DNA of 64,000 nucleotides from a virus: positions 40,163-104,162 of IMG/VR virus record IMGVR_UViG_3300047160_002053; one strand, 5' to 3'. A model generated the notes under the pieces. The model did no database searches and was not told where the DNA came from. It saw only the letters and a list, made by a program, of their open reading frames with translations. Position numbers and translations under genes: made by a program. This document shows, piece by piece, positions 873-64,000 of this stretch (the first letter of the stretch is position 1; every line of letters starts with the position of its first letter).

Positions 873-3518
873 TTATTGTTCTTCTACAGTTAAGATACGG
901 CTTTGTGCGGCAGTGCTAACTGCCGAGCTTGCCGGACTTCTCCAGTAAACCGCAATCGTGTGCGTTCCAGGAGAAAGGTTAAAGATACCATCAAACGGTG
1001 AGTATGCCGCAGTCGTTGCCGTAACGCCTTGTGCATCGAATACCTGAACACCATCAATAAATAGAGCAGTGTTAACGCCGTTAGATCCGTTCGAGGTCAT
1101 CTGAACGTTGTACGAGATACGAACGCGGTTGCCCTTGATCTTGATTTTGACCATCATATCTGGCATCGGCACGTATGTCGCGCTAGAAGTCGAAGGCGAT
1201 ACCGATTGGCCAGTTGCCTGAGCCCACGCTTTTGGCGTAGGGGCATTAATGACTGCAGTCGTATTGCGGTTATCCGAGATGCTTTGCGAACCGACCAAAG
1301 TCGAATTCATGATGTCGTTGTTAGCGAACTTATAAGCATGGATCGGAGTAATGATATTGATATTTTGGATCTGAATACCAGGAGTACCAGACGTTTTTGC
1401 AATCGTAACCGTATGGAAACCAAGAGTCAGTCCGGTGAATTCGACGCGGCAAGGAGCGCGAGCGGTAGTCGTGGTCGAGGTATAGATACCCGAGCCCGAG
1501 TTAACCATGTTACTACGTGCGACACCAGTAGAATTCAATGCGCCGTCAACAGTGACAGAGTACGCATAGGTTCCTCCGGATTGTCCCCACATGGAAATGT
1601 TAAATCCAGTTCCGAAGAAAGTGAAATTAACGTTGTCGCCGTTTGTACCAGAGTTAGACGTGTTACCAGTCGTACTTGCATTATCTACGCCGATAATAGA
1701 CCAGCCAGCGCCAGTATATGTGAATTCACGAACTGGCGACTTAAGCAAGACACCAGTAGGCATCTGCGTGTTATCAGTAGTCGAAGTTGCAGTCGTACCG
1801 TCATAGTTTGCGAAGTTATTGAAATCCGCAAGTTCGACCGTTCCTGAAGGAAGCGTAGGCTTCTTAGGTTGATAGATGGCAAACTTAACGATACCAGGAG
1901 CATTCAGGGATGCACTTCCATTGCTGAGTTTCAATGTGTGGGTTCCGTAAGGAAGACCAGACGCCAATTTAACCCAAACAGGATTCTGAGTAGTCGTATA
2001 AGTAGTGGTTCCGATTGAGGCACCGCCATCAATCGAATAAGTCATGCTGCGCGTGAAGCCTGTTGCGGTTTGTTGCAACATAACGTCGATACCAGTTCCG
2101 ATGAAAACCAAAAGCGTGAAGTTGGCGGTTCCAGAAAGAACCGACAATGCTTCACCGATGTTCGGATCAATGATACCGTTTAGAGAAGAAAGAGTAGTCA
2201 GGTTATCAGAAAGCGTGAATGCTTTGTTCGCAGCAGAAGATCCGAGCGACATAAAATCATCAGAACGCGAGCTTCCGAATTCACGGAAATGAACGATCTG
2301 TGCGATCTCTTCATTCTGGTGATTCGTATTCGTGAAGGTCAGCGAAGTAGCATCGACCGCCTGGAAAGCCGTACCGATAGTTCCGTCGCCATTTTGGTAA
2401 ACGAGAGTACGTCCACCTTTAGTTCCGGTGATACCAGCATTGTAAGCAAAAGTCACTGCCGAAGCGGTAGTGTATTTTTTACCCTGAATATATGCAATAC
2501 CAGGATTTACTTGAACGTTTGCAGCGGTAGTATTGACTGTGATAACTTCAATGCTTTGTACGCGAGCAGCAGCAGTAGCCGAGTTAGCACGGATCTTAAC
2601 GGTGTGAACGCCAAGAGTCAAGCCAGAAGCAACGTTGATACCTTGGAAGGTATCGTAGTTACGATTCGTCAAAGCACTGCTGTAAGTGGTTCCAGTCCAG
2701 ATATTCGATCCTTCTGCGCCGCCGTCAACAGATACGCGGAAATCGTTAGCGACCGAGTACGTTTGGAAACCAATGTTTAAGCCGGTTCCATAGAAAGTAA
2801 CTTCCATGAAATCGTTTAGAACGGCGAAAGAAACACCTGCACCAGAAGCGTCGCCGCTTGAAAGGATCGCTCCACCGAAGCGGATCTGTCCGAAAATATC
2901 TCCGATAACGCCATAAATCGGCTCTAGGTTAGGACCAAATTCACCTTGAATTTGGTACGCACCAGGGACCGGCATACGATCAAAACCAATCTGCGCTTTC
3001 AAGTTCGACGAAAGATCGGTGATGGATGCACGGTTCGTGATCGAAGAATAGAAAGTACCTGCGGCTGGAGTTCCAGTCGTAGAGGTAGCCGACATCAAAG
3101 AAGTCTGGTTAATGACTGCCTGGAATGAATTTCCTTGTGCTTCGTACAATTGGACAAAGCGATTGTCCATTGCGAATTCGGCTTCTTTTTTGAGGCCTAG
3201 AAGGAATGCTTGAATGTTCAGGTTGATATTAATCGGGCTGTTAAGCGTGATCTGACTAGAATAGCCGTTAGATCCAATGGCCGTGAACGTATAGTCGTTC
3301 GTGGAGCCCAGGCGCAATTTTTTACCGTCAACGAATAGCCAGAATTGATCTGGTTGATTCACTGTGTCAACGCTAAAAGAAAGGTTGATGACGGTCTGGC
3401 TCGCAGTCGAAACTGCGTAATAGCTAGACATTACAGGCTGTTGCGGCGCAAACGGCAGATCCTGATTGGTCTGCTTTTTGACGTTCGCTTTTGAATTTAA
3501 ACTCTGAGTAACAGGCAT
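873..3518 (-). CDS. tail fibre / receptor-binding protein, paralogue B
   Basis: 881 aa, Thr/Ser/Gly rich; three copies of an FxGTG...VxVDG...GLxxGxHT(V/L) beta-sandwich module; collinear with C-terminal two-thirds of 3552..7412. Confidence 0.7.
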   Translation of the reverse strand: MPVTQSLNSKANVKKQTNQDLPFAPQQPVMSSYYAVSTASQTVINLSFSVDTVNQPDQFWLFVDGKKLRLGSTNDYTFTAIGSNGYSSQITLNSPININLNIQAFLLGLKKEAEFAMDNRFVQLYEAQGNSFQAVINQTSLMSATSTTGTPAAGTFYSSITNRASITDLSSNLKAQIGFDRMPVPGAYQIQGEFGPNLEPIYGVIGDIFGQIRFGGAILSSGDASGAGVSFAVLNDFMEVTFYGTGLNIGFQTYSVANDFRVSVDGGAEGSNIWTGTTYSSALTNRNYDTFQGINVASGLTLGVHTVKIRANSATAAARVQSIEVITVNTTAANVQVNPGIAYIQGKKYTTASAVTFAYNAGITGTKGGRTLVYQNGDGTIGTAFQAVDATSLTFTNTNHQNEEIAQIVHFREFGSSRSDDFMSLGSSAANKAFTLSDNLTTLSSLNGIIDPNIGEALSVLSGTANFTLLVFIGTGIDVMLQQTATGFTRSMTYSIDGGASIGTTTYTTTQNPVWVKLASGLPYGTHTLKLSNGSASLNAPGIVKFAIYQPKKPTLPSGTVELADFNNFANYDGTTATSTTDNTQMPTGVLLKSPVREFTYTGAGWSIIGVDNASTTGNTSNSGTNGDNVNFTFFGTGFNISMWGQSGGTYAYSVTVDGALNSTGVARSNMVNSGSGIYTSTTTTARAPCRVEFTGLTLGFHTVTIAKTSGTPGIQIQNINIITPIHAYKFANNDIMNSTLVGSQSISDNRNTTAVINAPTPKAWAQATGQSVSPSTSSATYVPMPDMMVKIKIKGNRVRISYNVQMTSNGSNGVNTALFIDGVQVFDAQGVTATTAAYSPFDGIFNLSPGTHTIAVYWRSPASSAVSTAAQSRILTVEEQ

Positions 3519-3540
3519 CTTAACCCTCTTGTATCATATC

Positions 3541-3547
3541 TAAGATT
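3541..3547 (-). promoter_or_regulatory. AATCTTA putative late promoter motif
   Basis: Intergenic, about 22 nt upstream of ATG 3518; same heptamer precedes other structural operons. Confidence 0.65.
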
Positions 3548-3551
3548 GCGA

Positions 3552-6500
3552 TTAGGCTTCTTCCACCAGCAACGAGCGGCCAGTGCCGTTAGCCGTAAGT
3601 GTTCCCGATGCAGTTGTCCAGAAGATATCGTATTTATGGATACCAGGAGAAACGTATGCGTAATAGACCAAAGTGGTCGTCTCGCTAGATCCTCCAGTAA
3701 TCTGGTTATAAATAGGCGATCCATCGACATAGAAGCCAAATGCAGGTGCAGCGTTAGTGGTTGCCCAGTTAACGTACATAGTAATTTTAACACGTCCGCT
3801 CTTATTGGTATGAGTCACAGACAGATCTGGGACTGGAACCATCAGAGATGAACTGGTCGTTGGGCTTGAGTTCGTACCGAAAGCCTGTGCAACGTTTTTG
3901 GTCTGCAAGTTGCTATCTTTGATCGGAGTCGTTTTTCTCAAATCTGCCAAAGGCGCAGATCCAATAGGAAGTGAGTTCTGACCACTGTATAGCGAATTAT
4001 TGCGAACGTTATGGATAGGCGTAACGATATCGACACCTTCGTAGCCAAACGAAGTGGCTGCATTCTGAGTTAACACAACAAGGTGCAAACCAAGAGCAAG
4101 TCCAGAAACGCGCAGACCGTTACCGAAAGATCCGGTTCCGTTCGAGGTAGCGACACCAGTCGTTCCGACAAATGAAGTCCAGTTTCCGTAGAAGCTAGTC
4201 GTGGCTCCCAAAGTACCAGTCAAGTTAGCGACACCATCAACAGTCACGTTGAAAGTATTGGACGCGACCGGCGTAGACATACGAAGATCGAATCCAGTTC
4301 CGTAGAAGTAGAAACGAACAGTATTCGCAGCAGCTGCACCTATGAAACGAATGCCCTCGATAGAACCTGCGGTTCCACCTTGAGAAGAAGGAGCTTCCGT
4401 ATTCCATGTTCCAGTATAGATGTGCTCACGAACTGCTCCGCGACGAAGCATACCAGTTCCGATAAATTCGGCACCAGGAGTCGCGTTAGCAACGAAAGTT
4501 GCCATCACATTGTATTCGGCAAGTTCAATTGCGCCAGTAGGAAGCGTAGGCTTCTTAGGTTGGTAAGCAGTGAAGTATTTGAACACGCGGCTGTTAGAAG
4601 CAGAAGTAGAACGAAGTAATTTAACAGTGTGGGTTCCGTAAGGAAGACCAGACACAAGTTTTTGAGTTCTAACGCGGTTAACAACCGATAAACTATCCAA
4701 ACTTCCAATGGTAGTTCCGTCAACGATAACTGAACAAACATCGGCAGTAGAAGTATTGTCTTCATAAATGGTCAGATCGCAACCTGTTCCAACGAACGTG
4801 AACGTGATAAAGTTACCAGTTCCGACAGGGAATGCTCCATCGGCTTGGTTTGTTCCCGAGTTGTTCGAGATGTTACGACCGACCATAGCGGTGATACCAT
4901 CTTCTAGAGTGAAAGCACGGTCAACGCTTGCTCCTGGAGCAGAGAAATCATCCGAACGGTTCGCGCCGAATTCACGGAAGTAGTAATTATGGTATGCTTC
5001 TTCGTTACTGTGATCTGCTGCAGTCATGTTCAGCTGAGATCCAACAGGATTCAAAGCCTTCCCGATAGTTCCATCAGATTTCTGATAAATCAATACGCGA
5101 CCGCCACGGCTACCAAGGGTTCCCGTGTCGAAAGAAGATGCATATGCAGAAGAAACTTGCGATGCCAGAGACAGTTTTTGGCCCGAAACGTAAGAAACGC
5201 CAGGGTTAACCGCAATAGCGGTAGTTTCTGTTAGGACGTTAAATCCGTAAACAGTGATACCCGAAGTGCTGTTGTTACGGAGTTTAACCGTGTGAACACC
5301 AAGGGTCAAACCAGACACCAAGTTCAATTGTTGATACGTGTTGTATCCACGAGCAGCTGCGACAGCTGAATAGTTCCCGTAGATATTTGCACCTTCAGTT
5401 CCACCGTCAACCGTAACGCGAATGTCACGACCAGTAGTTCCTGCGAACGTAAACATGTTCAGGCCAGTTCCGTAGAACACTACTTCAACGTAATCGTTAG
5501 CAACATTCGTGAAAGGTCCGTTACCGTTAGTATCTACGACGTTTGCCCAGTTTCCACCGACAAAACGAACTTGACCAAACAAATCGCCGACAGATCCCCA
5601 GACTTGTTCGCCAGAAGAGCCGAATTCGTTGTTGATACCGTAGATCACTTGGGTAAGAATACGATCTTCACCCATACGCGCTTTCAAGTCCTGAGACAGA
5701 TCAGGAATTGCGGCGCGATTAGAAACTTGCGAATAATAAGCGCCAGCAGCAGGAACGCCAGTCGTGGTCGTAGGATTTAAAACAGAGTTCTGAGAAATAA
5801 ACGATTGGAAACCGTTAGTCATGATCTCTTGTTGCGAAGAGATATTGGTCGTATTGATGGTCGAGTTGTCAACGATTTGAGTACGTTGGAACACTTCAAC
5901 CGACAAGTTATACTTGCTGTAGTCACGATCCAAAAGAATCGACGTAGAGGAAAGTTCAGTGAAAGATGCATCCGGAGTCAAAGTCGAGTTGACAAATCGC
6001 GGGATCTTCTGACCGTTAACCCAAACTTCGATAGCCGAAGCGGTTGTACCAGCATAGACACCAACGGCGTACTGCCAAGTCAGTTGCAGAGAAGTCTTGC
6101 CGCCAGACGATCCAACCGTACAGTTGATCGGCGTACCAACGCTGTTTGTGAATGCATAGGCAGAGTTAGCGATACCGCCAGACGTTCCAGAAGTAGTCTT
6201 CTGCATGAACGCTTTGTACATGATAAGATTCGAGATACCCGAACCAGACGTTTGGTTTGCGAAGAAACGCAAGTACAGTGAAGTACCAGCAGACAAAAGA
6301 GAAGTCGAGTTCTCAGTGTCGGTTTCGTTCGTGTTGCGAACACCAACGGTCGTAAAGTTCGTATTGTCATTCGACGCAACAAAACCAATAACAGGGGTCG
6401 TATTCGGAGTAAAGATATTCGAGTTTGCAGTCGAGTTATCTTTATAGTCAACCAAGACATCGGAGAACGTCGAAGCGCCGAAAGCGGCAGAAATTGCTGC

Positions 6501-7763: not shown

Positions 7764-9751
7764 TAAGCAATTCCTCTAAATTGGGGTCCAGTGAACAAGA
7801 AGGCTCCTAATCCTGTAACGACACCGACAGCAATCTGTGCTTCGTTCGTCGTATTGGCCAAAGAAGCACCCAAAACTTGAGCGCCTGCAGAGCCGAGGAA
7901 AACTTCGCGTCCGATGTTCGAGTTACCGAACGATCCAGGAGCAGAAGTGCCAACCAAATTCACGGTAACGCTACCGCCTGCAGAAACTGCAGAGCTAGAG
8001 TTAACCCAACCAATAACAACCCATTTGTTGTCCGAAGAAGCGTCTTTGTCGGCTTTGTAAACGCGGCCAACAGTCTCGCCAAGATCGAACATCGCCATGC
8101 GAACCAAGAACGTAGTGTTCGCGGCCATAGCTTCACCGGCAACGAAGGATTGCTTCAGAGACGGTGCGTATTGAACTGCAGCTGCCGAGCCAGATCCACC
8201 AGTGATCGTTGCTTGGTCGTATGCAGTTGATTTAACGCGAATTGCGTTCGAGGAAATCTCCAAAGAGGTTCCATCGACGTTCGCTTTGACTTTCGTTCCA
8301 GAGCCGCCAGTGATAGCGCCTGCAGCGTCGTAAGTCGTAGAGACAATTTTATTCTCGTCAACCGAGTTCGCAGCGAGTTTTGCAAGGGTGATTCCCAAGT
8401 CTTTAACGCGCAACGCATTCGCGTTGATTTCAATGGTTGAAGCGTCAACATTGACAGCAAGACCAGAGGCACCCTGACCGATTGCTCCGCCAGCGGCGAG
8501 CTTAACAGCCAATTCGTTCAAACCAGTGATCTGCAACGAAGGGTTCGACGCTTCCAGGTTGATAGTCAACTGACCAGCAACGTTACCAGGATTTGTGGAC
8601 TTTAACCCACTGCTGGTAGCCAAGTCAACTGAAAAAGTGGACCCGCTGAAAGTAATCATGTCACCGCCGATCAAACCGGCGATAGGATTATAAAATGCGA
8701 AGTTAATCGGATCAGTTCCGACAGTAGTCACGGTTCCGTATTCAACGAAAACTTGACCTGCTTGCGAACCTTGTTGAACCGTAACCCACGCGCCGTTGAA
8801 TTCATCAATCGGAGTGAGAGAGTCCATGTCCGCAGAACGTGCCCACGCGCCCGAGGCAACAACGTAGATACCGTTGTCTGGAGCATTGGTTTGGTTCTTA
8901 ACGAGAACGCGATCACCGGCCACAAGAGCAACAGTGTCAACGGTCTGCGTACCGCTCAACGTCAAGTTTGCGGTCGAAGCTGCCTTGACAGGAGCTTTCG
9001 GTGTCAAACCATTCAGGCGAGCGTTCATGTACGCAAGAGTAACTGCGTCTTGCGATGCAGAAGGATCTGCTAAGTTAGTAGCTCGGAATCCACCGAACGA
9101 CTGGGCAGCTGCGAAAGCATTAACACCAGAAGTCAGGATTGCTTGTTCGTAACGAACTGCGTCGCCAGCAACAGCTGCAGCGGCCAAGTTCGTAAGTTTG
9201 AATCCACCCATCGACTGAGCAGCTGCGAATGCACGCGAACCATCTTGTTGGATCGAAGTATTGACCTGGCCAAGATTCACGTCTGCGTCTGGCATCGTGA
9301 TTGTACGAGTCGTGCTTGCGGTAATACCGGAAGCATCGAAAGCGATTTGCTTCGTGTTATCTAGTGTATTTTTGATGCGGAACGTGCCATCAAAAGCCGA
9401 AGAAGCAGTCGAGGAACCGAGAGCACTATCAATACCGGCAAGAGCGCCTTTAAGCGTCAAGTCACCATTGGTAAAGTTCGTGTACGAGTTGTTATCACCG
9501 ATCAGAGTCGAACCAGCCGTTCCGCCAGTGCTAGATCCAAGCTGCGTTTTGGTGAAATAGATGGTATTGTGAGTATGATACGTTGCGTCAACATCAGAAC
9601 CGTTTTGCAGAGACAGTAAACGACCGAGGATCGTGTCTGTCAGCGTATTAGTTCCGGTGCTAAGTGCGCCGACAACGAGGGTATTTACAGAGAGATCAAC
9701 TTGTCTCTGAATACCGCCAATTAACTGGGAGAGTTTTGAGATATTTGCCAT
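7763..9751 (-). CDS. tail fibre protein
   Basis: 662 aa; common phage fibre motif LSGTQTVD...GDRVLVKNQT...NGIYVV...W.R..D and TNLA.P...DAV repeats. Confidence 0.75.
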   Translation of the reverse strand: MANISKLSQLIGGIQRQVDLSVNTLVVGALSTGTNTLTDTILGRLLSLQNGSDVDATYHTHNTIYFTKTQLGSSTGGTAGSTLIGDNNSYTNFTNGDLTLKGALAGIDSALGSSTASSAFDGTFRIKNTLDNTKQIAFDASGITASTTRTITMPDADVNLGQVNTSIQQDGSRAFAAAQSMGGFKLTNLAAAAVAGDAVRYEQAILTSGVNAFAAAQSFGGFRATNLADPSASQDAVTLAYMNARLNGLTPKAPVKAASTANLTLSGTQTVDTVALVAGDRVLVKNQTNAPDNGIYVVASGAWARSADMDSLTPIDEFNGAWVTVQQGSQAGQVFVEYGTVTTVGTDPINFAFYNPIAGLIGGDMITFSGSTFSVDLATSSGLKSTNPGNVAGQLTINLEASNPSLQITGLNELAVKLAAGGAIGQGASGLAVNVDASTIEINANALRVKDLGITLAKLAANSVDENKIVSTTYDAAGAITGGSGTKVKANVDGTSLEISSNAIRVKSTAYDQATITGGSGSAAAVQYAPSLKQSFVAGEAMAANTTFLVRMAMFDLGETVGRVYKADKDASSDNKWVVIGWVNSSSAVSAGGSVTVNLVGTSAPGSFGNSNIGREVFLGSAGAQVLGASLANTTNEAQIAVGVVTGLGAFLFTGPQFRGIA

Positions 9752-9774
9752 TTTAAATCCTTAATCGAACGATC

Positions 9775-10035
9775 CTATTTAAGATTAGCCTGCTTAGGCT
9801 TCCTGCCTTTTTTGGCAGGTATTTTCGCGGCCTTAGCCGGTTTTTGTTCTAAACCATCAATTTGAAAGGCGATTTTTGCGCTCATCCCGTATATATTCAG
9901 GAAGGCATTCATTTTATTCGCCGCTTCATCGCAAATGTCCTTGCAACGATCCCCAAGCTGCTGGGACAGGTTTTTAACCTCTGCCATTGGCATCTTAGAA
10001 ATGTCAACTTTGCGCTCTCTGTCTTTCAAATCCAT
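9775..10035 (-). CDS. hypothetical protein with basic C-terminus
   Basis: Start moved to ATG 10035 (GGGAG SD). Confidence 0.65.
   Translation of the reverse strand: MDLKDRERKVDISKMPMAEVKNLSQQLGDRCKDICDEAANKMNAFLNIYGMSAKIAFQIDGLEQKPAKAAKIPAKKGRKPKQANLK
9780..9786 (-). promoter_or_regulatory. AATCTTA putative late promoter motif
   Basis: About 28 nt upstream of ATG 9751. Confidence 0.6.
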
Positions 10036-10495: not shown

Positions 10496-13194
10496 TAGAT
10501 TACCCACCATTGAGTTCCGTCACTGACCATAGTCACTGTGACGAATTGCGAACTGATCACGAGAGTATTTGCTCCGTCGATCAATTGAGCGCCAAAAGCT
10601 TGGATCGTAACTGCGTTGACAGATGCGTCGATCTTCTTGAAGAAGAAGACTTGACCTGTAGCCGAACTTGCAGTCGGAAGACTGAACAAGATCGAACCTG
10701 AAGTAGCATCGCCGAGCAACACGTTGTCGCTCGTCATTACGGTGTAGTTTCCAGTCTTAGTGGAAATTGCAACGGGTCCACCGATTGCATCGGCACCAGC
10801 AGGACCAGTAGGTCCAGGAGGTCCTTGAGGACCGACACCGCCTCCGCCGCCTCCACCTGCGCCGCCGCCTCCGCCATTGATGCGGAATTCGAGTTCGTCG
10901 CCGATTTCAAGCTGTTGAAGAATCATGATCTCATTTGAAGCAGTACCAGATGCACCAACTTCAGACCAGTCGATTCCCAAACGGAGATATTGACCATTCA
11001 AGAACACCATCAACGCGCCAGATCCTACAGTGTAATACTGCGTGATCGAAGCAAGACGAGTGTTCGGAGGAAGATTGATTACAGTGTTAACCGACACAGG
11101 TCCGGTCAAGGACGTAGGCGGAGTAGCACCAGAAGCCACGATATCGACGTTTTCATCGTAAGTCGGGCTGTTAAGAGAAGCAAGGATTGCACCGAAAGCG
11201 CTATCAAGTTTTTTGATTGCTTTCGTGAGATTATCACCGTCATTGACGATGTAGTTACCATCTCCAGAACCGTTCTGAACAATAGTGATTGCGAACGGAG
11301 CAGGAATATTGAAATTCACCGCATTTGCCGTAGCACCGCCAGAATTATTAGTAACGCGAACCGTATTTTGGTTCGGATTCGGACGAACAGCTGCTGTAAA
11401 ATCAGGCTGGAATGTTCCAGACAATGCAGATGCAAGCTGCGACGCAACTTGCGCGTCAGTCATTCCAGTCGTAATGTCCCATTCGATTCCAACATGGTCA
11501 GCCAAAGGAGCAGGGTCAGTTCCGCCGCCATCTTTGTTAACCCAAACGTAATATTTACGAGCATCAGCTGCAGAGTTGATGAAGAAATATTGATTCGACG
11601 ACATCGTTGCGGCAGATCCACAAAGAACATCTGTGATTTCAGGCAACGCACCAGGATTCACCGCAGAGGAGTATTGGGGTTTGCTAGACGTTTCTAGCGG
11701 AGCACCGATATACTGCAGGATCTGTTTAGGGAATCCATCGTCGATATCTTCCGACTCACCCATTTCAAGTTCTGTGCCGATGAATCGTACATAGACTCGC
11801 GGAATGACGCCGCCGTTATCCGCACGATGCAAGAACCAGAACACGTCCTGTCCTTGCGGTACGCTTGCGCGATCCGCAATGTAAATATCGCGGTTCGAGC
11901 TAGGTGTAGCCGAAGTGCTGTAGCTTCCGAATGCGTATTTAGCTTTCGCTCCGCCAGCGCCGGTAGACGTGCCCGCGAAAGGAATAGTCAATGTGACTTG
12001 GCTCAGAGAATCAACGGATTGGATTTGGTAGTATCCGGCAACGGTGTCTGCGCCCAGCTTAATCCAGTCACCAGCTTGCAACGGGCCAGTCCATGCAATG
12101 GAACCAACCGAAGTGACAACTGCTGACGAATTCGTGAAGATCAGGTTAGGAGAAATTTGTACGTCGCGAACCAAAGTCACATAGGCGACTTCGTTATCTG
12201 CGAGAGTAATGTCGGTAGAGGTAGGATTCGCCGTGAATTTGTATTTCAGACGCGAACCTACGATATTCAAGAAAATATCTTCGTCCCAATTGATGAGACC
12301 GGCAGTATCCGCAGAATGCGTGATCGTGCCTGCGCCCGTAGTAATCGTGTTACCAAGATCAGTGCGCAACGAATCAATGGAACCTGCCGAACCTGGCGAG
12401 TACCAATAGACCGTACCTTTGATTTCCTGGAGTGCCGTCATGATAGCATTCATCCAGTCTTTCAAAGTCATGAGCATCTTATCGCCGCCGTGGAACGGAT
12501 TGATCGAGTTCGACGAAGACGTAGAAGGATTTTCAGTACGACCTTCTGCTTGAGCGGTCCACGGATAAACGTAGAACGGATTCGGAGAAGCGCCGCCAGT
12601 TCCAAGACGGAACAGCATCCAGCGTGCATCGGTGATGCTTTGAACGTTATTGCCTGAATCGGTAGTTACTGTGGCAATAGGAAGAACGTTCGATGCAAAG
12701 GTGCTAGTCGTGATCTTAATGCGGTAGCGAAGAATCTGAGCACGAGGAGCATTTTTGGTAGTTTCGTTATTGGTAGTCGGGTTCCAGATGTACACTTGTG
12801 ACGAGGTAGTGTCGTCGATGAAGCGTTCATATTCCAGACCAACGTAGTTGATCGCAGAAGGCGCGAAAGCACCGTCAACGATAGTGTTCGTCGCGGAGTT
12901 CAGCTGCTGAGCAGGAGTGCCAACAGGAACGAGATAAAAAGTACCGGACTGGCTCGAAGAGACATGGAACACTGCGCCAGGATCAACGATGAGTTGAAGA
13001 CCCGATGCCGCACCGCCGATAGCTCCGGCCATAGAAATTTCAAAACCGCGAAGGAGATAACCCTGCGAAGTTCCGGTTACAAACGATTGAATTAACTGAT
13101 CGAAGTCATTGGACGCAGCTGATTCGAGAGCGCGCATGTCTGGGACATCGACCCTCTGCTGACTAATCCAATTAACACGTCTTTGAACGCCCAT
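10495..13194 (-). CDS. multi-domain tail fibre/baseplate-attached protein with collagen-like segment
   Basis: 899 aa; poly-Gly linker plus GPQGPPGPTGPAG; C-terminal KIDAS.NAVTI...IDG fibre-tip-like motif. Confidence 0.7.
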   Translation of the reverse strand: MGVQRRVNWISQQRVDVPDMRALESAASNDFDQLIQSFVTGTSQGYLLRGFEISMAGAIGGAASGLQLIVDPGAVFHVSSSQSGTFYLVPVGTPAQQLNSATNTIVDGAFAPSAINYVGLEYERFIDDTTSSQVYIWNPTTNNETTKNAPRAQILRYRIKITTSTFASNVLPIATVTTDSGNNVQSITDARWMLFRLGTGGASPNPFYVYPWTAQAEGRTENPSTSSSNSINPFHGGDKMLMTLKDWMNAIMTALQEIKGTVYWYSPGSAGSIDSLRTDLGNTITTGAGTITHSADTAGLINWDEDIFLNIVGSRLKYKFTANPTSTDITLADNEVAYVTLVRDVQISPNLIFTNSSAVVTSVGSIAWTGPLQAGDWIKLGADTVAGYYQIQSVDSLSQVTLTIPFAGTSTGAGGAKAKYAFGSYSTSATPSSNRDIYIADRASVPQGQDVFWFLHRADNGGVIPRVYVRFIGTELEMGESEDIDDGFPKQILQYIGAPLETSSKPQYSSAVNPGALPEITDVLCGSAATMSSNQYFFINSAADARKYYVWVNKDGGGTDPAPLADHVGIEWDITTGMTDAQVASQLASALSGTFQPDFTAAVRPNPNQNTVRVTNNSGGATANAVNFNIPAPFAITIVQNGSGDGNYIVNDGDNLTKAIKKLDSAFGAILASLNSPTYDENVDIVASGATPPTSLTGPVSVNTVINLPPNTRLASITQYYTVGSGALMVFLNGQYLRLGIDWSEVGASGTASNEIMILQQLEIGDELEFRINGGGGGAGGGGGGGVGPQGPPGPTGPAGADAIGGPVAISTKTGNYTVMTSDNVLLGDATSGSILFSLPTASSATGQVFFFKKIDASVNAVTIQAFGAQLIDGANTLVISSQFVTVTMVSDGTQWWVI

Positions 13195-13229
13195 TTAACT
13201 ACCCTTTAGATTTTAGATACTACCAAATA

Positions 13230-13236
13230 TAAGATT
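13230..13236 (-). promoter_or_regulatory. AATCTTA putative late promoter motif
   Basis: Intergenic, about 35 nt upstream of ATG 13194. Confidence 0.65.
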
Positions 13237-13311
13237 GTCATGTTGCTGGTCCTTCCAAAATCGGTTGCCTACACCCTATTTATCATATAAGATGGTCTTA
13301 GGATGCAGCTG

Positions 13312-56599: not shown

Positions 56600-56675
56600 T
56601 GGTGGAGCCTATCGGACTCGAACCGATCACCTCCTGCTTGCAAAGCAGGCGCTCTCCCAGATGAGCTAAGGCCCC
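56600..56675 (-). tRNA. tRNA-Ala (anticodon TGC), CCA encoded
   Basis: GGGGCCTTAGCTCATCTGGGAGAGCGCCTGCTTTGCAAGCAGGAGGTGATCGGTTCGAGTCCGATAGGCTCCACCA; cloverleaf with G3:U70 pair. Confidence 0.97.
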
Positions 56676-57360: not shown

Positions 57361-57527
57361 GTGCGGAGATTAGGCGTCGTATTCTCCGCATGTATATACA
57401 CCAGAGGCGTCTCATAGCGGGAAATCCCCAGTGAGGTCACGGGCATGGTCAATTATGCGTATAAACGAGCTGGATTATCCCTATTGGGGATAGCACGTAT
57501 GTATAAAGCTGTAAGGGCTTGATTTTA

Positions 57528-57606
57528 CAGAAAATTTTCCGGAAAAAATTTTTCGATTATACATACGGGTCCCATTTTGGAATATTTTTTTGGAAAAATT
57601 TTTTGT
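57528..57606. repeat. A/T-tract inverted repeats at the strand switch
   Basis: GAAAATTTTCC/GGAAAAAATTTTTC near-palindrome and a second TTTTTTTGGAAAAATTTTTT tract. Confidence 0.6.
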
Positions 57607-57640
57607 CGTTTGTTCATGTCCATATATCCCAGCCTTTAGC

Positions 57641-57656
57641 TGCAAGGGGTATGCCA
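57641..57656 (-). promoter_or_regulatory. sigma54-type (-24/-12) promoter
   Basis: TGGCATACCCCTTGCA: GG-N10-GC with TGGCA and TTGCA. Confidence 0.65.
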
Positions 57657-57866
57657 AACCCCGATGACCCATATTCCCTAGAGATTCCGCGTAGTTACAT
57701 GATTTGATACACTCCAAAGTCTCTTATTGGGCTGTCAACGGATTGCTCTACACTGTCTAATGATTTCTATGCGACTCGTTATCGACCCCGCTTAAGTTCT
57801 ACATAGAGGCCAAAAGGAATGCCAGCGTATCGAAATGGGATTCTTAGATTTATTTTTTGAAAGGCC

Positions 57867-57893
57867 TCAAGTTCCTATTGATTGCACCGATAC
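57867..57893 (+). promoter_or_regulatory. sigma28/FliA-type promoter
   Basis: TCAAG-N15-CCGATAC, about 30 nt upstream of ATG 57924. Confidence 0.7.
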
Positions 57894-57923
57894 GTTGTAT
57901 GTAACCCAAACAAAGGAGCACAT

Positions 57924-58319
57924 ATGCAACTGCTTAAAGGAAACGAAGGACGCAAGGTCATGGTAGAGGTCAACGGCCATATGGTCGAGGCCGTGGTCTC
58001 GGTTATGTGGGACTATGAGGACACTCATCCGGTTAGCGGTGAGGACTTCGATTTTGGTGACTCTCAGGCCAATGACGATTATGAGGCGCGCTTCTTTAGA
58101 GGCGAGTTGTCAAACGTGATGGTGACGGTGCGCGTTATGGCGGAAGGTCTAGAAGGGTTAGACCATTTAGGCGCGTGTCATGTCACAAGTCGAGATTTTG
58201 AAACTGACCTAATGCAACTTGTCAACGACCACGATATGATAGGCCAAGCGAGTGATGAGCTTAAAACCAATATAATCGAGGCGGCTAGTCGTCTCCAAAA
58301 ATATGCGAAAGGGGCCTAA
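57924..58319 (+). CDS. acidic hypothetical protein
   Basis: Start ATG 57924 with AAGGAG SD. Confidence 0.75.
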   Translation: MQLLKGNEGRKVMVEVNGHMVEAVVSVMWDYEDTHPVSGEDFDFGDSQANDDYEARFFRGELSNVMVTVRVMAEGLEGLDHLGACHVTSRDFETDLMQLVNDHDMIGQASDELKTNIIEAASRLQKYAKGA

Positions 58320-58320
58320 T

Positions 58321-58566
58321 ATGGACCAAAACAAGACACTCAAGGCGGGCGACCTCGTTAAGTATCACGTCCAGGACGAGACCTTGACAGAGCTTGGTTT
58401 TAAGCTAGGTCAAATCTATATGGTCAAGACTACGCTTAAAGGCGCTTTAGCCGCTGACAACGGTGACGCCTATGCGGTTCTGGTTATGGACGGTGCCTTG
58501 ACAGACCACGCGGATCATTTCGCTAAGCACCGTTGTCCAGTGGTTTTGCCTAGAGGTGTTCAATGA
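58321..58566 (+). CDS. hypothetical protein
   Basis: Start ATG 58321 right after the upstream stop. Confidence 0.65.
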   Translation: MDQNKTLKAGDLVKYHVQDETLTELGFKLGQIYMVKTTLKGALAADNGDAYAVLVMDGALTDHADHFAKHRCPVVLPRGVQ

Positions 58567-58847
58567 GTCGTCCTAATATGACCAAAATCACAAAGTTGGA
58601 GTTGTACACGATCTTATATGGGCTAGGTTTCAAAAAGCGTTTGGAGCTTGCAAAACTATGTGGCGTTGGAATAGGTGCGGTTAACCAGTGGTTTCGACGC
58701 GAGGAGATTCCGACCTATAGGCTTGCTTATATCAAAACACATATAGGCGATACAAAAGTCATGCCATTCGTGGAGACTGCAAATGACGTGCCAGGACCAA
58801 ACTACTGTCCCAATTGTGGTCATTGTCTCAAAAAGACGCACGAATAG
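58563..58847 (+). CDS. Cro-like HTH protein with C-terminal Zn knuckle
   Basis: ELAKLCGV...AVNQW...IP; CPNCG. Confidence 0.7.
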   Translation: MSRPNMTKITKLELYTILYGLGFKKRLELAKLCGVGIGAVNQWFRREEIPTYRLAYIKTHIGDTKVMPFVETANDVPGPNYCPNCGHCLKKTHE

Positions 58848-58855
58848 CCGGAGGG

Positions 58856-59375
58856 TTGACTCCAGCTATTTTGACGGTCTCATTATGAGAAATGTGGCGC
58901 GGTCAAACCGCGTTTTTTGAGACCTTTTCAAAATGACCACGTTGACTAAACGAAGCCGCCGACCTAACGAAAATGACCTAACTATTTGATATAATTAGAT
59001 TATTTGTCTATTGACCATGCCCGTGACCTATTTTGAGGCGCGGGCCGCCTTTAGTGGCCTTTCCTATCCTTCCCTCTATGCCAAAATTGACACGCATGGG
59101 ATTGACACGCTAACCGATTCTATCTAGTGAACCTCTGAAACATTCGACCGCTATAGAGCGACGTTGCTTCACAATGAGACCGCAATTAGTCCTCAAGTGT
59201 TAGCCTATAGATAAGATTGCATGGACTTAATAGGCTCTATTATATTCGTTTTAAGCGTATAACTGATTGACAGTGCCAAAAAGATTGACAAAACGCCATA
59301 ACATATCGAATAGACTAATGAATTGACTCAAATCAAATTTGAGCTGAGCAAAACCTTGACAGTGTTAGAATTGAC
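58856..59375 (+). repeat. array of co-oriented TTGAC boxes in a 630-bp non-coding region
   Basis: 11 plus-strand TTGAC counted by hand, six being TTGACA; ATTGACACGC twice (59086, 59101). Confidence 0.75.
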
Positions 59376-59403
59376 ACGGTTAATAAATTCAATGCGTTAG
59401 GGT

Positions 59404-59419
59404 TGGCACGCTGGATGCA
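59404..59419 (+). promoter_or_regulatory. sigma54-type (-24/-12) promoter
   Basis: TGGCACGCTGGATGCA: GG-N10-GC, upstream of ATG 59476. Confidence 0.65.
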
Positions 59420-59475
59420 ATGAGTTAGGTCAACCCCCCGCGCCACGGAAGGCGCATTTTTGAAAGGCGGCTTAT

Positions 59476-59694
59476 ATGGCTCGGGACTTAGTTGCTGATT
59501 TTCTCAAAAAACACTCTCTTGCGGACATCAAGGCCGAAGTTGTAGGCGAAACCCTTAACGAGTATGGCACTAAGTTTGCAAGCTATTTTTTCGGCAACGG
59601 TGAATTGATCGTGTGTCCTGCTGATGAGTCTCAGGATGAGACAGTTTACGTTATTGACACTTATGGAGACCGTGATTTTTTAGTTGAATTCTAA
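59476..59694 (+). CDS. small acidic hypothetical protein
   Basis: 72 aa; GAAAGGCGG SD. Confidence 0.7.
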   Translation: MARDLVADFLKKHSLADIKAEVVGETLNEYGTKFASYFFGNGELIVCPADESQDETVYVIDTYGDRDFLVEF

Positions 59695-59731
59695 AACGCT
59701 ATGCGTTATGCTTTAGGTATTGGAGGCGATT

Positions 59732-60280
59732 ATGCGACTGCTTAGAATGTTCTACTGGACTCGGGTTATTAAGGCCCTCGCCTATTATGGTTTGATTTTG
59801 ACTAACTTGATCTTATCACTCAACCTTGTCATGGTTAAGTTTCGCCCGTCTCAGATTGACCCTCAACTGCAATTTTGGGTTGACGAATTCGGGCGCGTGG
59901 GCCTTGAACATGGCGTCAAGGTTTCGACTCATGGCCTTATTATGCGTTTTGTGGACCGCTCTAGTTTTGGCGGTGAACATGAGTTATTAGGTCAAAAAGT
60001 TGTCACGTTGGCCCAATGCAATCCTATGACTAACACAATCGAGATAGGCCGCGAACCATATCAAAATGCGACTGAATGGCAACGCCGTCTCGTTTTGTTT
60101 CACGAAATGGGTCATTGCATTCTCAAATTGGGTCACGACGAGCGCATAGCTGCAAATGGTATGCCAAACTCAATCATGTATCCCATTATGACACCTATTC
60201 AATACAATCCAGCGACCGCGTTTCAATATGACGCGCAGCTTTTTGGGTCATACGCATTTAATCAAGGCGGCTCGAAATGA
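59732..60280 (+). CDS. membrane-anchored zinc metallopeptidase (related to 26636..27217)
   Basis: N-terminal TM; HEMGHCILKLGH; SIMYP Met-turn. Confidence 0.75.
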   Translation: MRLLRMFYWTRVIKALAYYGLILTNLILSLNLVMVKFRPSQIDPQLQFWVDEFGRVGLEHGVKVSTHGLIMRFVDRSSFGGEHELLGQKVVTLAQCNPMTNTIEIGREPYQNATEWQRRLVLFHEMGHCILKLGHDERIAANGMPNSIMYPIMTPIQYNPATAFQYDAQLFGSYAFNQGGSK

Positions 60281-60354
60281 GTCAAAAAGAGTATCATTTG
60301 TGGATATGTGCCTATCTAGGACTGGACCCGACTAAAGTTAAATTCGTCGGTTGA
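60277..60354 (+). CDS. microprotein (25 aa)
   Basis: ATGA-coupled; MSQKEYHLWICAYLGLDPTKVKFVG. Confidence 0.35.
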   Translation: MSQKEYHLWICAYLGLDPTKVKFVG

Positions 60355-60379
60355 CAGAACGCATTGAACGCGCTAAGCT
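60351..60379 (+). promoter_or_regulatory. sigma70-type promoter
   Basis: TTGACA-17-TAAGCT. Confidence 0.65.
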
Positions 60380-60418
60380 AAATAGTGACCTAAAAACCAA
60401 TAGCCAAAGGAGGCTAAC

Positions 60419-60721
60419 ATGCAAGACGGAAACCAAACCCAAAACACGACCCAAGTTGAGACGCCGAATCAATTCAAAGTCATCAAGCGTTATGCTAACC
60501 GCAAGCTCTATGACACCGAAGAGTCTCAATATGTGACACTCACTCAAGTTCAGGACTTTGTTAAGGCGGGACGCGAAGTCATCGTCATTGACAACGCCTC
60601 GAAACGAGACATCACGGCTAAAACGCTGTTGGCGTCTATCATTGAGACAGAATCAGAGCGCGAAGACCTTTCGACTTCTGAAGTTGTGGCGCTTATCAAA
60701 CGCGGACTTTCGACAAAATAA
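60419..60721 (+). CDS. PhaR-like DNA-binding domain protein (PHB_acc_N)
   Basis: IKRYANRKLYDT..S.YVTL......V..G....VID.....DIT...L. Confidence 0.9.
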   Translation: MQDGNQTQNTTQVETPNQFKVIKRYANRKLYDTEESQYVTLTQVQDFVKAGREVIVIDNASKRDITAKTLLASIIETESEREDLSTSEVVALIKRGLSTK

Positions 60722-60724
60722 CGC

Positions 60725-60751
60725 TAAAGTTTTGCCGTGGCCGTCCGATAA
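60725..60751 (+). promoter_or_regulatory. sigma28/FliA-type promoter
   Basis: TAAAGTTT-N11-TCCGATAA. Confidence 0.8.
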
Positions 60752-60797
60752 GTTGTTAAGTCACTGAATCGGACGGTCATTCAACGAAAGGATCAAA

Positions 60798-61457
60798 ATG
60801 GGACGCAACGGAGAGATTTCGATTCAAATTGAGATTGAGATTCCCGCCATGCCAGCGCCGCCGCAAAAACTTGAGTTTGACGTGCCAAATTTAGAGCAGC
60901 GTCACGTTTTGAAACGTGTTAAGGAAACGACAGGCATTGACGTTGTGACCTCTAAAGGCGAGGGCCGTGCAATTTTGGGTTTTGCGTCTTGGTTCGCTAG
61001 TGGATGCTATGCGAGGCCCGAAACTAGCCCGATGCTGCAACGTGAGACTATCGTTTTATTTTTGGAACCTCATGACCCATATTGGTACAGCGTACTATTC
61101 CACGAATTAGGACACGCCACGGGACACCAAAGCCGTTTGGCTCGAATTGGTATCACGAATCACGAAATGTATGCTTTTGATATGCGCGTGCGTGCAATCG
61201 AGGAAATCATTGCCGAGAGTGTCGCGGCGCGTGTTATGGACCGCTTAGCCCTTGCAACCGAAACGACTAGAGCGAAAAGCCGCGACTATTTGAGGCATTT
61301 TGCAGAGCCCGTTGGCATTGATATTGCAGACAGCGAAATTCAACACTCTATTAAACTCGCCTATGATTTAGTCATGCAATGGCTTGAATTCATGGAGATT
61401 TCTCGTTATGAAACGAAATTAGGCGACCTCATGAAGGAATTTAATAAGTTTTTTTGA
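60798..61457 (+). CDS. ArdC-type zincin metallopeptidase (MPTase-like)
   Basis: Y..LFHELGHATGH.SRL.R...EEIIAE...Y. Confidence 0.8.
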   Translation: MGRNGEISIQIEIEIPAMPAPPQKLEFDVPNLEQRHVLKRVKETTGIDVVTSKGEGRAILGFASWFASGCYARPETSPMLQRETIVLFLEPHDPYWYSVLFHELGHATGHQSRLARIGITNHEMYAFDMRVRAIEEIIAESVAARVMDRLALATETTRAKSRDYLRHFAEPVGIDIADSEIQHSIKLAYDLVMQWLEFMEISRYETKLGDLMKEFNKFF

Positions 61458-61476
61458 TTTTTTTGACAAAACGCGC

Positions 61477-61503
61477 TAAAGTTTTAGGAGAGACAGCCGA
61501 TAA
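61477..61503 (+). promoter_or_regulatory. sigma28/FliA-type promoter (exact consensus)
   Basis: TAAAGTTT-N11-GCCGATAA. Confidence 0.85.
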
Positions 61504-61519
61504 GTTATATATGGAGGCA

Positions 61520-61663
61520 ATGACAATGAACGCGAAACGAATCAAAACAATGAAAGTCGAAAGGATGACGGCGACAATTCAAAAACGCCTAGAGGCCTTC
61601 GGGTTTCAAATTGTTTGGATTAAATTCGTTTCATACGGACACACTGTCATTGGTTACAAATGA
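61520..61663 (+). CDS. small basic hypothetical protein
   Basis: Start moved to ATG 61520/61526 behind GGAGG; the longer TTG ORF would cover the promoter. Confidence 0.6.
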   Translation: MTMNAKRIKTMKVERMTATIQKRLEAFGFQIVWIKFVSYGHTVIGYK

Positions 61664-62196
61664 AACGTATCAATTTGATCTATTCCGCTTTAGTGCTTAT
61701 CGTCACTGTTTCCCTTGGTTTCGCTATGCGTACCGAAACGAAACCCGCGCCGGTTGAGACTGTCAAGGTCGAGCCACAAGCTAAAGACCAAAGTCAAGAC
61801 GTGCGCGACGTTGCGTTAGCTAACGGTTTCACGCCTTCGGAACGTATCGTCAACGCTATTTTGCGTGCTTCTGAAACGTATCAGATTGATTCAATCGAAT
61901 TGACTGCAATCGCTATAGTGGAGACAGGCCTAGGCAAAAACGCTAAGACTCGCGTCAATTCAAACGGCACTAAAGATCATGGCTTGTTTCAAATCAATAC
62001 AGTGAACGCACCTAAATGCGTTGAATATAACTTAGACAGTCCCGAAGGTTCCGCGCTATGCGCTGCAAAACTACTGTCTCAAATCAAAGCACGTCGCGCC
62101 GATTATTTAGGCGTGTATCATTCTAAAACACCGTCCAGAAAGTTGGTATATATGCAAAAACTGGACCAAGTGATGTCTCAAACTGATAATAAATAA
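61660..62196 (+). CDS. exported lytic transglycosylase (SLT family)
   Basis: Signal/TM; AIAIVET, N.NGT.D.GLFQIN, G.YHS. Confidence 0.85.
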   Translation: MKRINLIYSALVLIVTVSLGFAMRTETKPAPVETVKVEPQAKDQSQDVRDVALANGFTPSERIVNAILRASETYQIDSIELTAIAIVETGLGKNAKTRVNSNGTKDHGLFQINTVNAPKCVEYNLDSPEGSALCAAKLLSQIKARRADYLGVYHSKTPSRKLVYMQKLDQVMSQTDNK

Positions 62197-62219
62197 TTTC
62201 AAAAAACGCAAAATAAAAC

Positions 62220-62247
62220 TTGAGTTTTTTAGTCATGTATCCGATAC
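62220..62247 (+). promoter_or_regulatory. sigma28/FliA-type promoter (variant)
   Basis: TTGAGTTT...TCCGATAC with spacer one base longer; upstream of ATG 62271. Confidence 0.6.
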
Positions 62248-62270
62248 TAGATATATGAAAGGCGGTAGTT

Positions 62271-62666
62271 ATGAACATTAAAACCAATATCCTGATTTTC
62301 TCAGTGTTTCAAACCAATACGTCACGCGAGTTGAACGAATCACGTCACCGCGACGTTTTGGCAAGACTGCAACGCTCTGGAGTCCCTGCAATCGAATTGC
62401 AAGGCAAATACAACGGCAACGAAGAGTTGTCAATTTTGGTTGACGGTTTCAATCACCGTGCCGACGTTGAGTATTTTTGCCGTGAATTCAATCAAGAGTG
62501 TTATTTAGAGTCTCATAATGACCGCGCAACGTCGCTTGTGTTTCCCGATGGGACACGCCAAAAACTTGGCACGCTCGTTGCAGCATCTAAAGATGAGGCG
62601 GAGGCGTCTGGCTCATATCCATACAATCCCAATTCGGGATATTTCATTGTGAGACAAGGAGCTTAA
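62271..62666 (+). CDS. S-adenosylmethionine lyase (T3 SAMase-like)
   Basis: S.F..N....N.SRHR, G.Y...EE.S, C.EF.Q.C.L match T3 SAMase motifs as recalled. Confidence 0.8.
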   Translation: MNIKTNILIFSVFQTNTSRELNESRHRDVLARLQRSGVPAIELQGKYNGNEELSILVDGFNHRADVEYFCREFNQECYLESHNDRATSLVFPDGTRQKLGTLVAASKDEAEASGSYPYNPNSGYFIVRQGA

Positions 62667-62667
62667 T

Positions 62668-63189
62668 ATGCCGAATCATGTTGAGAATGACTTATATATT
62701 CGTGGACCAAAAAAAGACATTGAGGCGTTTTTCGAGGCCGTGCGCGGCAAAACGGATCAATATGGCACGACCGAAATTGACGCTGATAAGCTGATTCCTT
62801 ATCCTAAGCGTTTCGCGGACGCTGATAAGGCGGCGCGTGACTTTCGAGAGGCTAACCCCAAAGCGCCGTGGTCCGAAGGTCCACAAGACGGTTATAATCA
62901 AGGCGGCTACGAATGGTGCGTTTCAAATTGGGGCACGAAATGGGGATTCTATGACTTTAGTCCGATTCGTTTCGGCAAAAATGGGGACCGCGCTAAGGTA
63001 TCGTTTCAAACGGCATGGAGTCCAGCGTTTCCGTTATTCAATGCAATGGCTAAAAAATTCCCGACGTTGACATTTACAGTCCGCTATTTCGAGCGCGGAA
63101 TGGGTTTCAAAGGCCTTTACAAGGTCAAAGGAGACGAAGTGTTAGCGGACGAATGTAGCGAGAACTATCGCGGAAACCGTGGAGGCTAA
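62668..63189 (+). CDS. DUF1281/YubB-like protein
   Basis: MPN...N.L, Y.W...NWGTKW, F.TAWSP. Confidence 0.8.
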   Translation: MPNHVENDLYIRGPKKDIEAFFEAVRGKTDQYGTTEIDADKLIPYPKRFADADKAARDFREANPKAPWSEGPQDGYNQGGYEWCVSNWGTKWGFYDFSPIRFGKNGDRAKVSFQTAWSPAFPLFNAMAKKFPTLTFTVRYFERGMGFKGLYKVKGDEVLADECSENYRGNRGG

Positions 63190-63192
63190 ACA

Positions 63193-63420
63193 ATGACACG
63201 CGCAAAATATAAAGCCTTGAGGGTCAAGGCTTACAAAATGACCGGCGAAATTGGACACTTAGCAGAATTGCACGGCAATGAGATGCCTCAACTTGAGTCG
63301 TCCTATAAAGAGATGTGTCGAGGACTTGACGCGATTGATGACCTCGGCATCTCATTAGGATACGTGGACCCTGAAACCAATGATTTGATTGACAGACGTT
63401 TCAAAAACAAGGCGGGCTAA
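63193..63420 (+). CDS. hypothetical protein
   Basis: 75 aa; GGAGG SD. Confidence 0.65.
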   Translation: MTRAKYKALRVKAYKMTGEIGHLAELHGNEMPQLESSYKEMCRGLDAIDDLGISLGYVDPETNDLIDRRFKNKAG

Positions 63421-63421
63421 T

Positions 63422-63799
63422 ATGAGAATTGCAAGCGACGTACTCGGGACACTCAAAGGCCACAAAGGGGACGTGATTCACGAAGCTTTGACGCGCCTTA
63501 TCGCGCAAGGTCATGAGGTCGTGGTCTGGTCCTCGGACTATGGACTTGCGGTCAATGAAGCGAAACAACGCGGCTTAGACGTGAATACGGCCACAAGCAA
63601 GTTTGCCAAGTATGAAGCAAACGAGCAAGGCAAGGAACTTTTTGACGTGGCAATCGAAGACGACCACATGCAAAAGCGATACCTTGCAGCGAAGCGTTTC
63701 ATTATGGTTGACGAAATAACAGACGTTGACTCATTGGTTAACATGATTTTGAACCCCTCCCCCGTGGTTCAAAATGAGAATCAGGATGACGAATTCTAA
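63422..63799 (+). CDS. degenerate HAD-like protein
   Basis: RIASDVLGTL, VVVWS, DVAIEDD; second Asp of DxD missing. Confidence 0.6.
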   Translation: MRIASDVLGTLKGHKGDVIHEALTRLIAQGHEVVVWSSDYGLAVNEAKQRGLDVNTATSKFAKYEANEQGKELFDVAIEDDHMQKRYLAAKRFIMVDEITDVDSLVNMILNPSPVVQNENQDDEF

Positions 63800-63825
63800 A
63801 AAGTATTTTTTAAGGAGGTCTTAAA

Positions 63826-63999
63826 ATGGGAACGCGAAATATCACAATGGTACGAGTAGGCGGAAAAATCAAAGTTATGCAATACTGTCAATGGGATGGA
63901 TACCCGACAGGGCAAGGCGAGACGATTGCCGAATTCATTCAAGACAAAATGGACTTGCCCTTGTTCAAAAAACAAGTCAAGGCTTTACGCAATATCAGT
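63826..63999 (+). CDS. conserved phage protein (YxxWDGYP motif), truncated by window end
   Basis: MGTRNIT...QYCQWDGYPTGQG; AAGGAGG SD. Confidence 0.7.
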   Translation, partial: MGTRNITMVRVGGKIKVMQYCQWDGYPTGQGETIAEFIQDKMDLPLFKKQVKALRNIS

Positions 64000-64000
64000 G

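Follow-up and report, generated by a model that had tools for sequence, protein, structure and literature searches.

Textbook phage transcription programmes begin with the housekeeping sigma factor of the host or with a phage polymerase. In T4, the early promoters are read by the unmodified host sigma-70 holoenzyme and the late promoters by the truncated sigma factor gp55 together with gp33 (PMC6024815), and in phiEco32 the phage sigma factor gp36 redirects the host polymerase (PMC12276001). Promoters of the alternative, flagellar sigma factor sigma-28 (FliA) follow, in Escherichia coli, the consensus TAAAGTTT-N11-GCCGATAA (PMC2859248). In the attack phase of Bdellovibrio bacteriovorus, in which sigma-28 is a global regulator of the cell state, the sequence TTAAG-N16-CCGATA is found in 92 of 140 promoters (PMC3627812). 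Here we describe four sites of this class in a 64,000-nucleotide stretch of phage DNA (the window), which comprises bases 40163-104162 of the linear, 104,162-bp IMG/VR virus record IMGVR_UViG_3300047160_002053 (G000; G+C content (GC) 45%). Judged by their sequence, the four sites are sigma-28-class promoter sequences at gene starts, and the genes that they precede are of the early type. The first-pass annotation of this DNA, made from the letters alone, knew of no described phage programme of this kind, and we likewise found no paper on phage early genes run from sigma-28 promoters; a known promoter class is thus encountered here in an undescribed role.

The first-pass annotation had placed the four sites in the plus-strand block at the end of the window, within about 50 nt of starts led by a Shine-Dalgarno sequence (SD), and had seen none at gene starts in the other 57 kb. 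All four were found on the plus strand, with the sequences described, 23-47 nt upstream of SD-led ATG codons. They are intergenic, lie on the coding strand and are confined to the early plus-strand block. Promoter 3 matches the E. coli sigma-28 consensus at 16 of 16 positions. The -35 octamer TAAAGTTT (core TAAA) is matched at 6, 8, 8 and 6 of its eight positions in promoters 1-4, respectively, and within the -10 octamer GCCGATAA (core CGA) the hexamer CCGATA is exact in all four. The pattern AGTT-N12-15-CCGATA occurs five times in the window against 0.35 expected, a count reached in none of 100 shuffled sequences; the fifth match (28111) is antisense and within a gene. When the whole 104-kb contig was scanned with a position weight matrix (PWM), the four sites scored 18.7-25.7 bits, and everything else scored at most 15.3 bits and lay inside genes. 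The observation of the first-pass annotation was confirmed. No sigma-70-type promoter matching at least 10 of 12 consensus positions was found within 57400-64000 of the window.

Table. Sigma-28-type sites and the genes behind them (positions in the window; Nn, spacer in nt between the -35 and -10 octamers; ORF, open reading frame; HTH, helix-turn-helix; aa, amino acids)
Feature	Position	Strand	Sequence or product	Score or match	End of -10 box to SD-led ATG
Promoter 1	57867-57893	+	TCAAGTTC-N11-ACCGATAC; located at the strand switch	20.4 bits	31 nt (ATG at 57924)
Promoter 2	60725-60751	+	TAAAGTTT-N11-TCCGATAA	24.5 bits; 1 mismatch (15/16)	47 nt (ATG at 60798)
Promoter 3	61477-61503	+	TAAAGTTT-N11-GCCGATAA	25.7 bits; 0 mismatches	23 nt (ATG at 61526)
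Promoter 4	62220-62247	+	TTGAGTTT-N12-TCCGATAC	18.7 bits	24 nt (ATG at 62271)
Unit 1	57924-58847	+	three small genes, encoding 131, 81 and 94 aa (the last one a weak match to CI-type HTH proteins)		
PhaR-N-like gene	60419-60721	+	small DNA-binding protein; no sigma-28 site of its own	PF07879, 1e-23	
Unit 2	60798-61457	+	ArdC-type zincin metallopeptidase	PF18818, 1.2e-9; phrog_7245 (anti-restriction), 1.7e-9	
Unit 3	61526-62196	+	45-aa ORF (61526-61663) and SLT lytic transglycosylase with a hydrophobic N-terminus (61660-62196)	SLT: PF01464, 2.5e-7	
Unit 4	62271-63999	+	S-adenosylmethionine (SAM) lyase (62271-62666), followed by four or more genes	SAM lyase: PF23780, 3.4e-13	

The G000 phage is a large, uncultured, lytic-type relative of Myxococcus phage Mx1 with a genome of ~160-170 kb. 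The start of the contig encodes, in this order, a helicase, a sigma-like gene, a small ORF and a calcineurin-type phosphoesterase. The same helicase-sigma-phosphoesterase order is present in Mx1 (169.6 kb), the sole cultured relative found, whose 'putative RNA polymerase sigma factor' is 34% identical to the sigma of G000. A complete 170.6-kb relative (IMGVR_UViG_3300001199_000003, G001) is collinear with G000: bases 51-95282 of G000 correspond to 63565-167212 of G001, and the SLT gene of the window corresponds to 5.8-6.2 kb of G001. From this arrangement it follows that ~57 kb of the rightward early arm are absent from G000, and the gap falls between the end of the window and the start of the contig. 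Both contig ends cut ORFs (the C-terminal part of the helicase at the start, 63826-63999 at the end). Within the window, genes run leftward from ~57.7 kb and rightward from 57.9 kb up to the contig end. A tRNA-Ala(TGC) gene is located among the first leftward genes (56600-56675, minus strand), and four different tRNAs (Pro, Thr, Gly and Asp) are encoded in the early arm of G001. The early region of G000 had no DNA match among phage records; searches of IMG/VR found no relatives of the ArdC gene of the window and few of its SLT gene.

The two-box arrangement is conserved in related phages. The cassette CTAAAGTTT-N12-CCGATAAGT was found in the early arms of five related contigs (L028, L029, G006:C11, G012 and G008). 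In L028 (from the Joint Genome Institute, 47% GC), sites precede the ArdC-like gene and the small ORF, in synteny with promoters 2 and 3 of G000, and a third lies in the 3' end of the SLT gene; L029 has two sites. G006:C11 (129 kb, 38% GC) carries four sites immediately past its strand switch, and in G012 (58 kb, 31% GC) four exact cassettes fall within the first 4.5 kb, with a phage sigma gene 50 kb further. Two sites are present in the complete, 171-kb G008, where a homologue of the SAM lyase lies ~0.8 kb downstream of the second. We aligned 20 sites from seven contigs (G000, these five and G001), which range in GC from 31% to 47%, on the -10 box. Two conserved blocks emerged, CTAAAGTTtT and CCGATAaGT, with an A-rich stretch upstream, unconserved spacers, and an SD and ATG downstream. 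The equivalent of promoter 4 lies directly downstream of the SLT stop codon in G000 and inside the 3' end of the SLT gene, within the last 10 codons, in G001 (6200-6233), L028 (1775-1815) and L029 (330-365). The reading frame in which CCGATA falls differs in L029 from that in L028 and G001, indicating that the constraint is on the DNA and not on the protein.

The relatives differ in the class of promoter that they use. G001 has one strong sigma-28-type site only, which lies at 6203 within the 3' end of the SLT gene. Before the small ORF and SLT gene, where promoter 3 is located in G000, it carries TTGACT-17-TATAAT, and after the SLT gene, at the position orthologous to promoter 4, TTGACC-17-CATAAT. 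Both are near-consensus sigma-70 promoters, and several more are found on the coding strand of the G001 early arm. The early arms of G006:C11 and G008 yielded no coding-strand sigma-70 promoter matching 11 of 12 positions. The forward strand of G002 gave no sigma-28 match, and Mx1 has no sigma-28 sites; Myxococcus, the host of Mx1, has no flagella. To judge from the sequences, one set of early operons thus carries promoters of the sigma-70 class in one lineage and of the sigma-28 class in others. Sigma-70 promoters at the orthologous positions of G001 are what would be expected if host holoenzymes read the sites and the promoter class had been exchanged. In a tree of seven phage sigma factors all inner branches were open, and the exchanges could therefore have been one or several.

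The cassette extends beyond this lineage. The exact sequence CTAAAGTTT-N12-CCGATAAGT was found in 69 IMG/VR stretches (77 copies; L072-L140) versus 2 for the reversed control, a ~35-fold excess, and most copies have an SD and a start codon or ORF downstream. It is present in unrelated complete phages, and the 118-kb G010 carries it with no FliA-like sigma of its own. The phenomenon seems, from these counts, to be widespread.

We consider a host sigma-28-family factor acting on the host core RNA polymerase to be the likeliest reader of the four sites, with a probability of about 0.62. In this mechanism, the sites would be functional sigma-28-class (FliA/SigD/WhiG-type) promoters heading four early transcription units. 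Region 4.2 of the host factor would read CTAAAGTTT, regions 2.4 and 3.0 would read CCGATAA, and transcripts would start ~6-9 nt past the -10 box. In that case, the genes for anti-defence and takeover would be expressed only in a host state in which sigma-28 is free, which could be that of motile cells or, if the host is Bdellovibrio-like, the attack phase. Sigma-28-family factors occur in non-motile bacteria too (WhiG, chlamydial sigma-28), and the state that is read need therefore not be swimming. The reading sigma factor, the timing and the link to the host state are all points that we infer.

Several findings weigh against this reading; they concern the identity of the host, a possible reader encoded by the phage, and other promoter-like elements of the early block. 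The metagenome-assembled genome bins that contain related contigs disagree with one another (Flavobacteriaceae, Saprospiraceae, 'Deltaproteobacteria' and Kaiserbacteria). As to the reader, a phage-encoded factor might take the place of the host sigma-28, which would make the circuit self-contained and the sites middle-type promoters. Such a factor could be a FliA-like sigma encoded in the ~57 kb absent from the contig or a sigma in two pieces, composed of the phage sigma P0001 (967-2073 of G000, outside the window) and a 72-aa protein resembling region 4.2 (13072-13290 of G000). The contig is a fragment (CheckV completeness ~65%), and the absent ~57 kb leave room for a FliA-like gene. The genome does encode a sigma-70-family protein, and the 72-aa, region-4-like HTH protein could in principle complete this truncated factor. 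Moreover, G011, an unrelated complete phage (109 kb, terminal repeats) with four exact cassettes, encodes its own FliA-like sigma (97827-98459); by sequence, self-contained circuits made of the cassette and an own FliA-like sigma do exist elsewhere. We nevertheless regard this explanation as unlikely for G000. The FliA_WhiG search detected the factor of G011 (85 bits), showing that the method is able to see such genes. The same search and those with Sigma70_r2, Sigma70_r4 and FlgM gave nothing over threshold in G000, G001, G002, G008 and G012. G001, G002 and G008 are complete, and G012 spans the early block absent from G000, with the sigma-28 cluster at one end and the phage sigma at the other. 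In addition, a match of 16 out of 16 positions to a cellular consensus would be a coincidence for a divergent phage sigma, and the orthologous operons of G001 carry host sigma-70 promoters. A 318-aa ORF (P0002) found no support as a second sigma factor (E = 0.076 against PHROG, E = 0.53 against PDB sequences).

The properties of P0001 also argue against a phage-encoded reader. P0001 has 844 homologues at 66-81% identity, and in P0001 and the four homologues that were read the C-terminus is ...LHRK(I/V)L.LKG(I/L)K(I/L), which in our reading corresponds to region 4.1. The AlphaFold model (predicted local distance difference test score (pLDDT) 76) is matched by primary sigma factors from structures of the RNA polymerase holoenzyme and contains only two helices beyond a disordered linker, leaving no region 4.2 helix-turn-helix for reading a -35 box. 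In a profile comparison with E. coli FliA, region 2 alone aligned, and weakly (E = 0.035). According to the model, P0001 is thus a protein with a sigma-70-family fold that lacks the -35-reading region 4.2 and is not FliA-like. At the positions where sigma-70 and FliA have DNA-contacting residues, the 72-aa protein has, in our own reading of the alignment, the acidic sequence EEQVEQ. P0001 and the region of the 72-aa gene are conserved in G001, with its one sigma-28 site, and P0001 is found in G002, which has none. P0001 is also accompanied by another motif: AATCTT(T)A is found 4-35 nt upstream of the starts of 11 late or structural genes in G000 (examples in the window: 3518-3560, 9751-9800 and 13194-13240) and of 15 in G001, with identical flanks at orthologous genes of the two phages (ATGACAATCTTATATTTGGTAGT). 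Both P0001 and AATCTTA are kept in the sigma-28-rich G000 and in the sigma-28-poor G001. Since P0001 lacks a -35 reader, is shared with site-poor relatives and travels with AATCTTA, it most plausibly serves late promoters, and AATCTTA is probably, to judge from its placement, the late promoter of this truncated sigma. The first-pass annotation had noted that a phage-encoded sigma would turn host-state coupling into a self-contained circuit. The genome does have a phage sigma, but one without region 4.2 that is not FliA-like and is also present in site-poor and site-free relatives, which argues against such a circuit; a FliA-like sigma, for which the rest of the genome was to be checked, was not found in the ~65% of the genome contained in the 104-kb contig.

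The host sigma-28 could also read the sites in a lesser role, as internal promoters of an auxiliary kind that raise the expression of a few accessory genes when cells are motile, while infection is launched from a sigma-54-like box at 59404, from TTGACA-type boxes or from promoters in the missing arm. The sigma-54-like sequence TGGCAY-N6-TGCW occurs 8 times in the window versus 0.43 expected. Seven of the eight lie within 57641-62582, on both strands and five of them in coding sequence (the eighth is at 38741). The box at 59404 lies before the gene at 59476 and the minus-strand box at 57656 before the first leftward gene; G006:C11 has a box of this kind at the corresponding position (L069 12951), which is non-coding. 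A 600-bp non-coding stretch of the window contains, at 58856-59375, an array of TTGAC(A) sequences that all have the same orientation and no good -10 hexamers. In L028 (44-80) and L029 (375-410), a related element, TTGACAGNCTGAATCAA, is located upstream of genes, and a weak TTGACA-17-TAAGCT is found before the PhaR-like gene at ~60345. In L029 and G001, a sigma-28 site stands in tandem with a TTGAC-type promoter. The genes at 59476-60721 have no sigma-28 site, G008 has two sites and G001 a single one, and no strong terminators were seen between units 2-4, so that read-through could make the sigma-28 sites auxiliary. On the other hand, at the strand switch of G000, and likewise of G006:C11, the first unit has no recognisable promoter other than site 1. 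The early block of G000 and the coding-strand arms of G006:C11 and G008 lack strong sigma-70 promoters, as described above, and no gene for a sigma-54 activator was found in G000, G001 or G002. On balance, a purely auxiliary role appears improbable. The same elements do qualify the earlier claim that the phage starts infection with the sigma-28 holoenzyme, which was overstated in view of the seven sigma-54-like boxes, the TTGAC array, the site-free 59476-60721 interval and the ~57 kb absent from the contig.

It is very improbable that the sites are not promoters at all: a PhaR-N-like DNA-binding gene adjoins site 2, and the sites could be bound by its product or by the adjacent HTH proteins as regulators, but chance is ruled out by the 16-position matches, the shuffle count, the PWM separation and the reversed control in IMG/VR, and a non-promoter function is difficult to reconcile with a fixed two-box architecture with sigma-28 spacing and variable spacer sequences in 20 sites from seven contigs, with the constant placement before SD-led starts, and with the SD and start codon that follow most IMG/VR copies. 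Two further candidates were rejected. Appropriation of sigma-70 in the manner of T4 MotA/AsiA does not fit the -10 box CCGATAAGT, which is without the last-position T of the sigma-70 hexamer, and a repeated mobile element does not fit the conservation of the boxes alone, with spacers and flanks not conserved.

The gene content behind the sites is of the early type according to Pfam and PHROG, and Pfam agrees with the three gene assignments of the first-pass annotation in the operons headed by the sites, namely an ArdC-type peptidase, a transglycosylase and a SAM lyase. Homologues of unit 1 are found in the early arms of G012 and G006:C11, and unit 3 is conserved in G001, G006:C11, L028 and L029. 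The last gene of unit 4 continues past the contig end. The PhaR-N-like gene is located directly upstream of promoter 2, and the order PhaR-ArdC-small ORF-SLT is kept in L028 and G001. Its product is a stand-alone N-terminal domain of 100 aa, the nearest Atlas cluster of which is 80% viral. An Atlas search with this protein returned only viral and mixed taxa, and the small PhaR-N-like regulator seems to be a recurrent phage gene.

The broader proposition is that large Mx1-like phages launch their first anti-defence genes via the host sigma-28 holoenzyme, that many unrelated uncultured phages may do so too, and that lineages swap sigma-70 and sigma-28 promoters, tuning infection to the state of the host cell. 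We give this proposition an even chance. If true, it would represent a general, so far undescribed strategy of phage transcription in which the physiology of the host is sensed as soon as the phage begins to be transcribed, with effects on host range, on the infection of non-motile or biofilm cells and on the timing of anti-restriction genes. The sigma-28 promoters of G000, L028, L029, G006:C11, G012 and G008 and the sigma-70 promoters of G001 constitute a natural experiment, and these paired lineages with different promoter classes make the idea directly testable. Since the host must own a FliA-type sigma, the cassette could also help to predict hosts.

Among the known systems, the class 3 flagellar promoters of E. 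coli and Salmonella resemble the phage sites in having both octamers, a spacing of 11-12 nt and a short distance to the gene. Unlike them, the phage sites precede genes for anti-restriction, SAM-lyase and transglycosylase proteins and not flagellar or chemotaxis genes. The promoters of the FliA type that act in the Bdellovibrio attack phase belong to the same class and are used far beyond flagellar genes to mark the cell state; this regulon is the model for the idea of a phage that reads the state of its host. The phage sites differ from it in detail: measured as in the Bdellovibrio motif, the spacer is N15 in three of the four and N16 in one, promoters 1-3 have TAAAG or TCAAG, and none of the four carries TTAAG. 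As in T4, the early genes of G000 would be transcribed by a host holoenzyme, and a phage sigma lacking part of region 4 appears to be linked to a single-box late motif, AATCTTA. Unlike in T4, the host factor for the early units of G000 appears to be the alternative sigma-28, and G001 uses sigma-70 at the same operons. Sigma factors of the phiEco32 gp36 type and that of G011 exemplify an alternative route to sigma-28-type promoters in phages; in the G000 lineage no FliA-like gene was detected, and its own sigma is predicted to be without a -35-reading domain.

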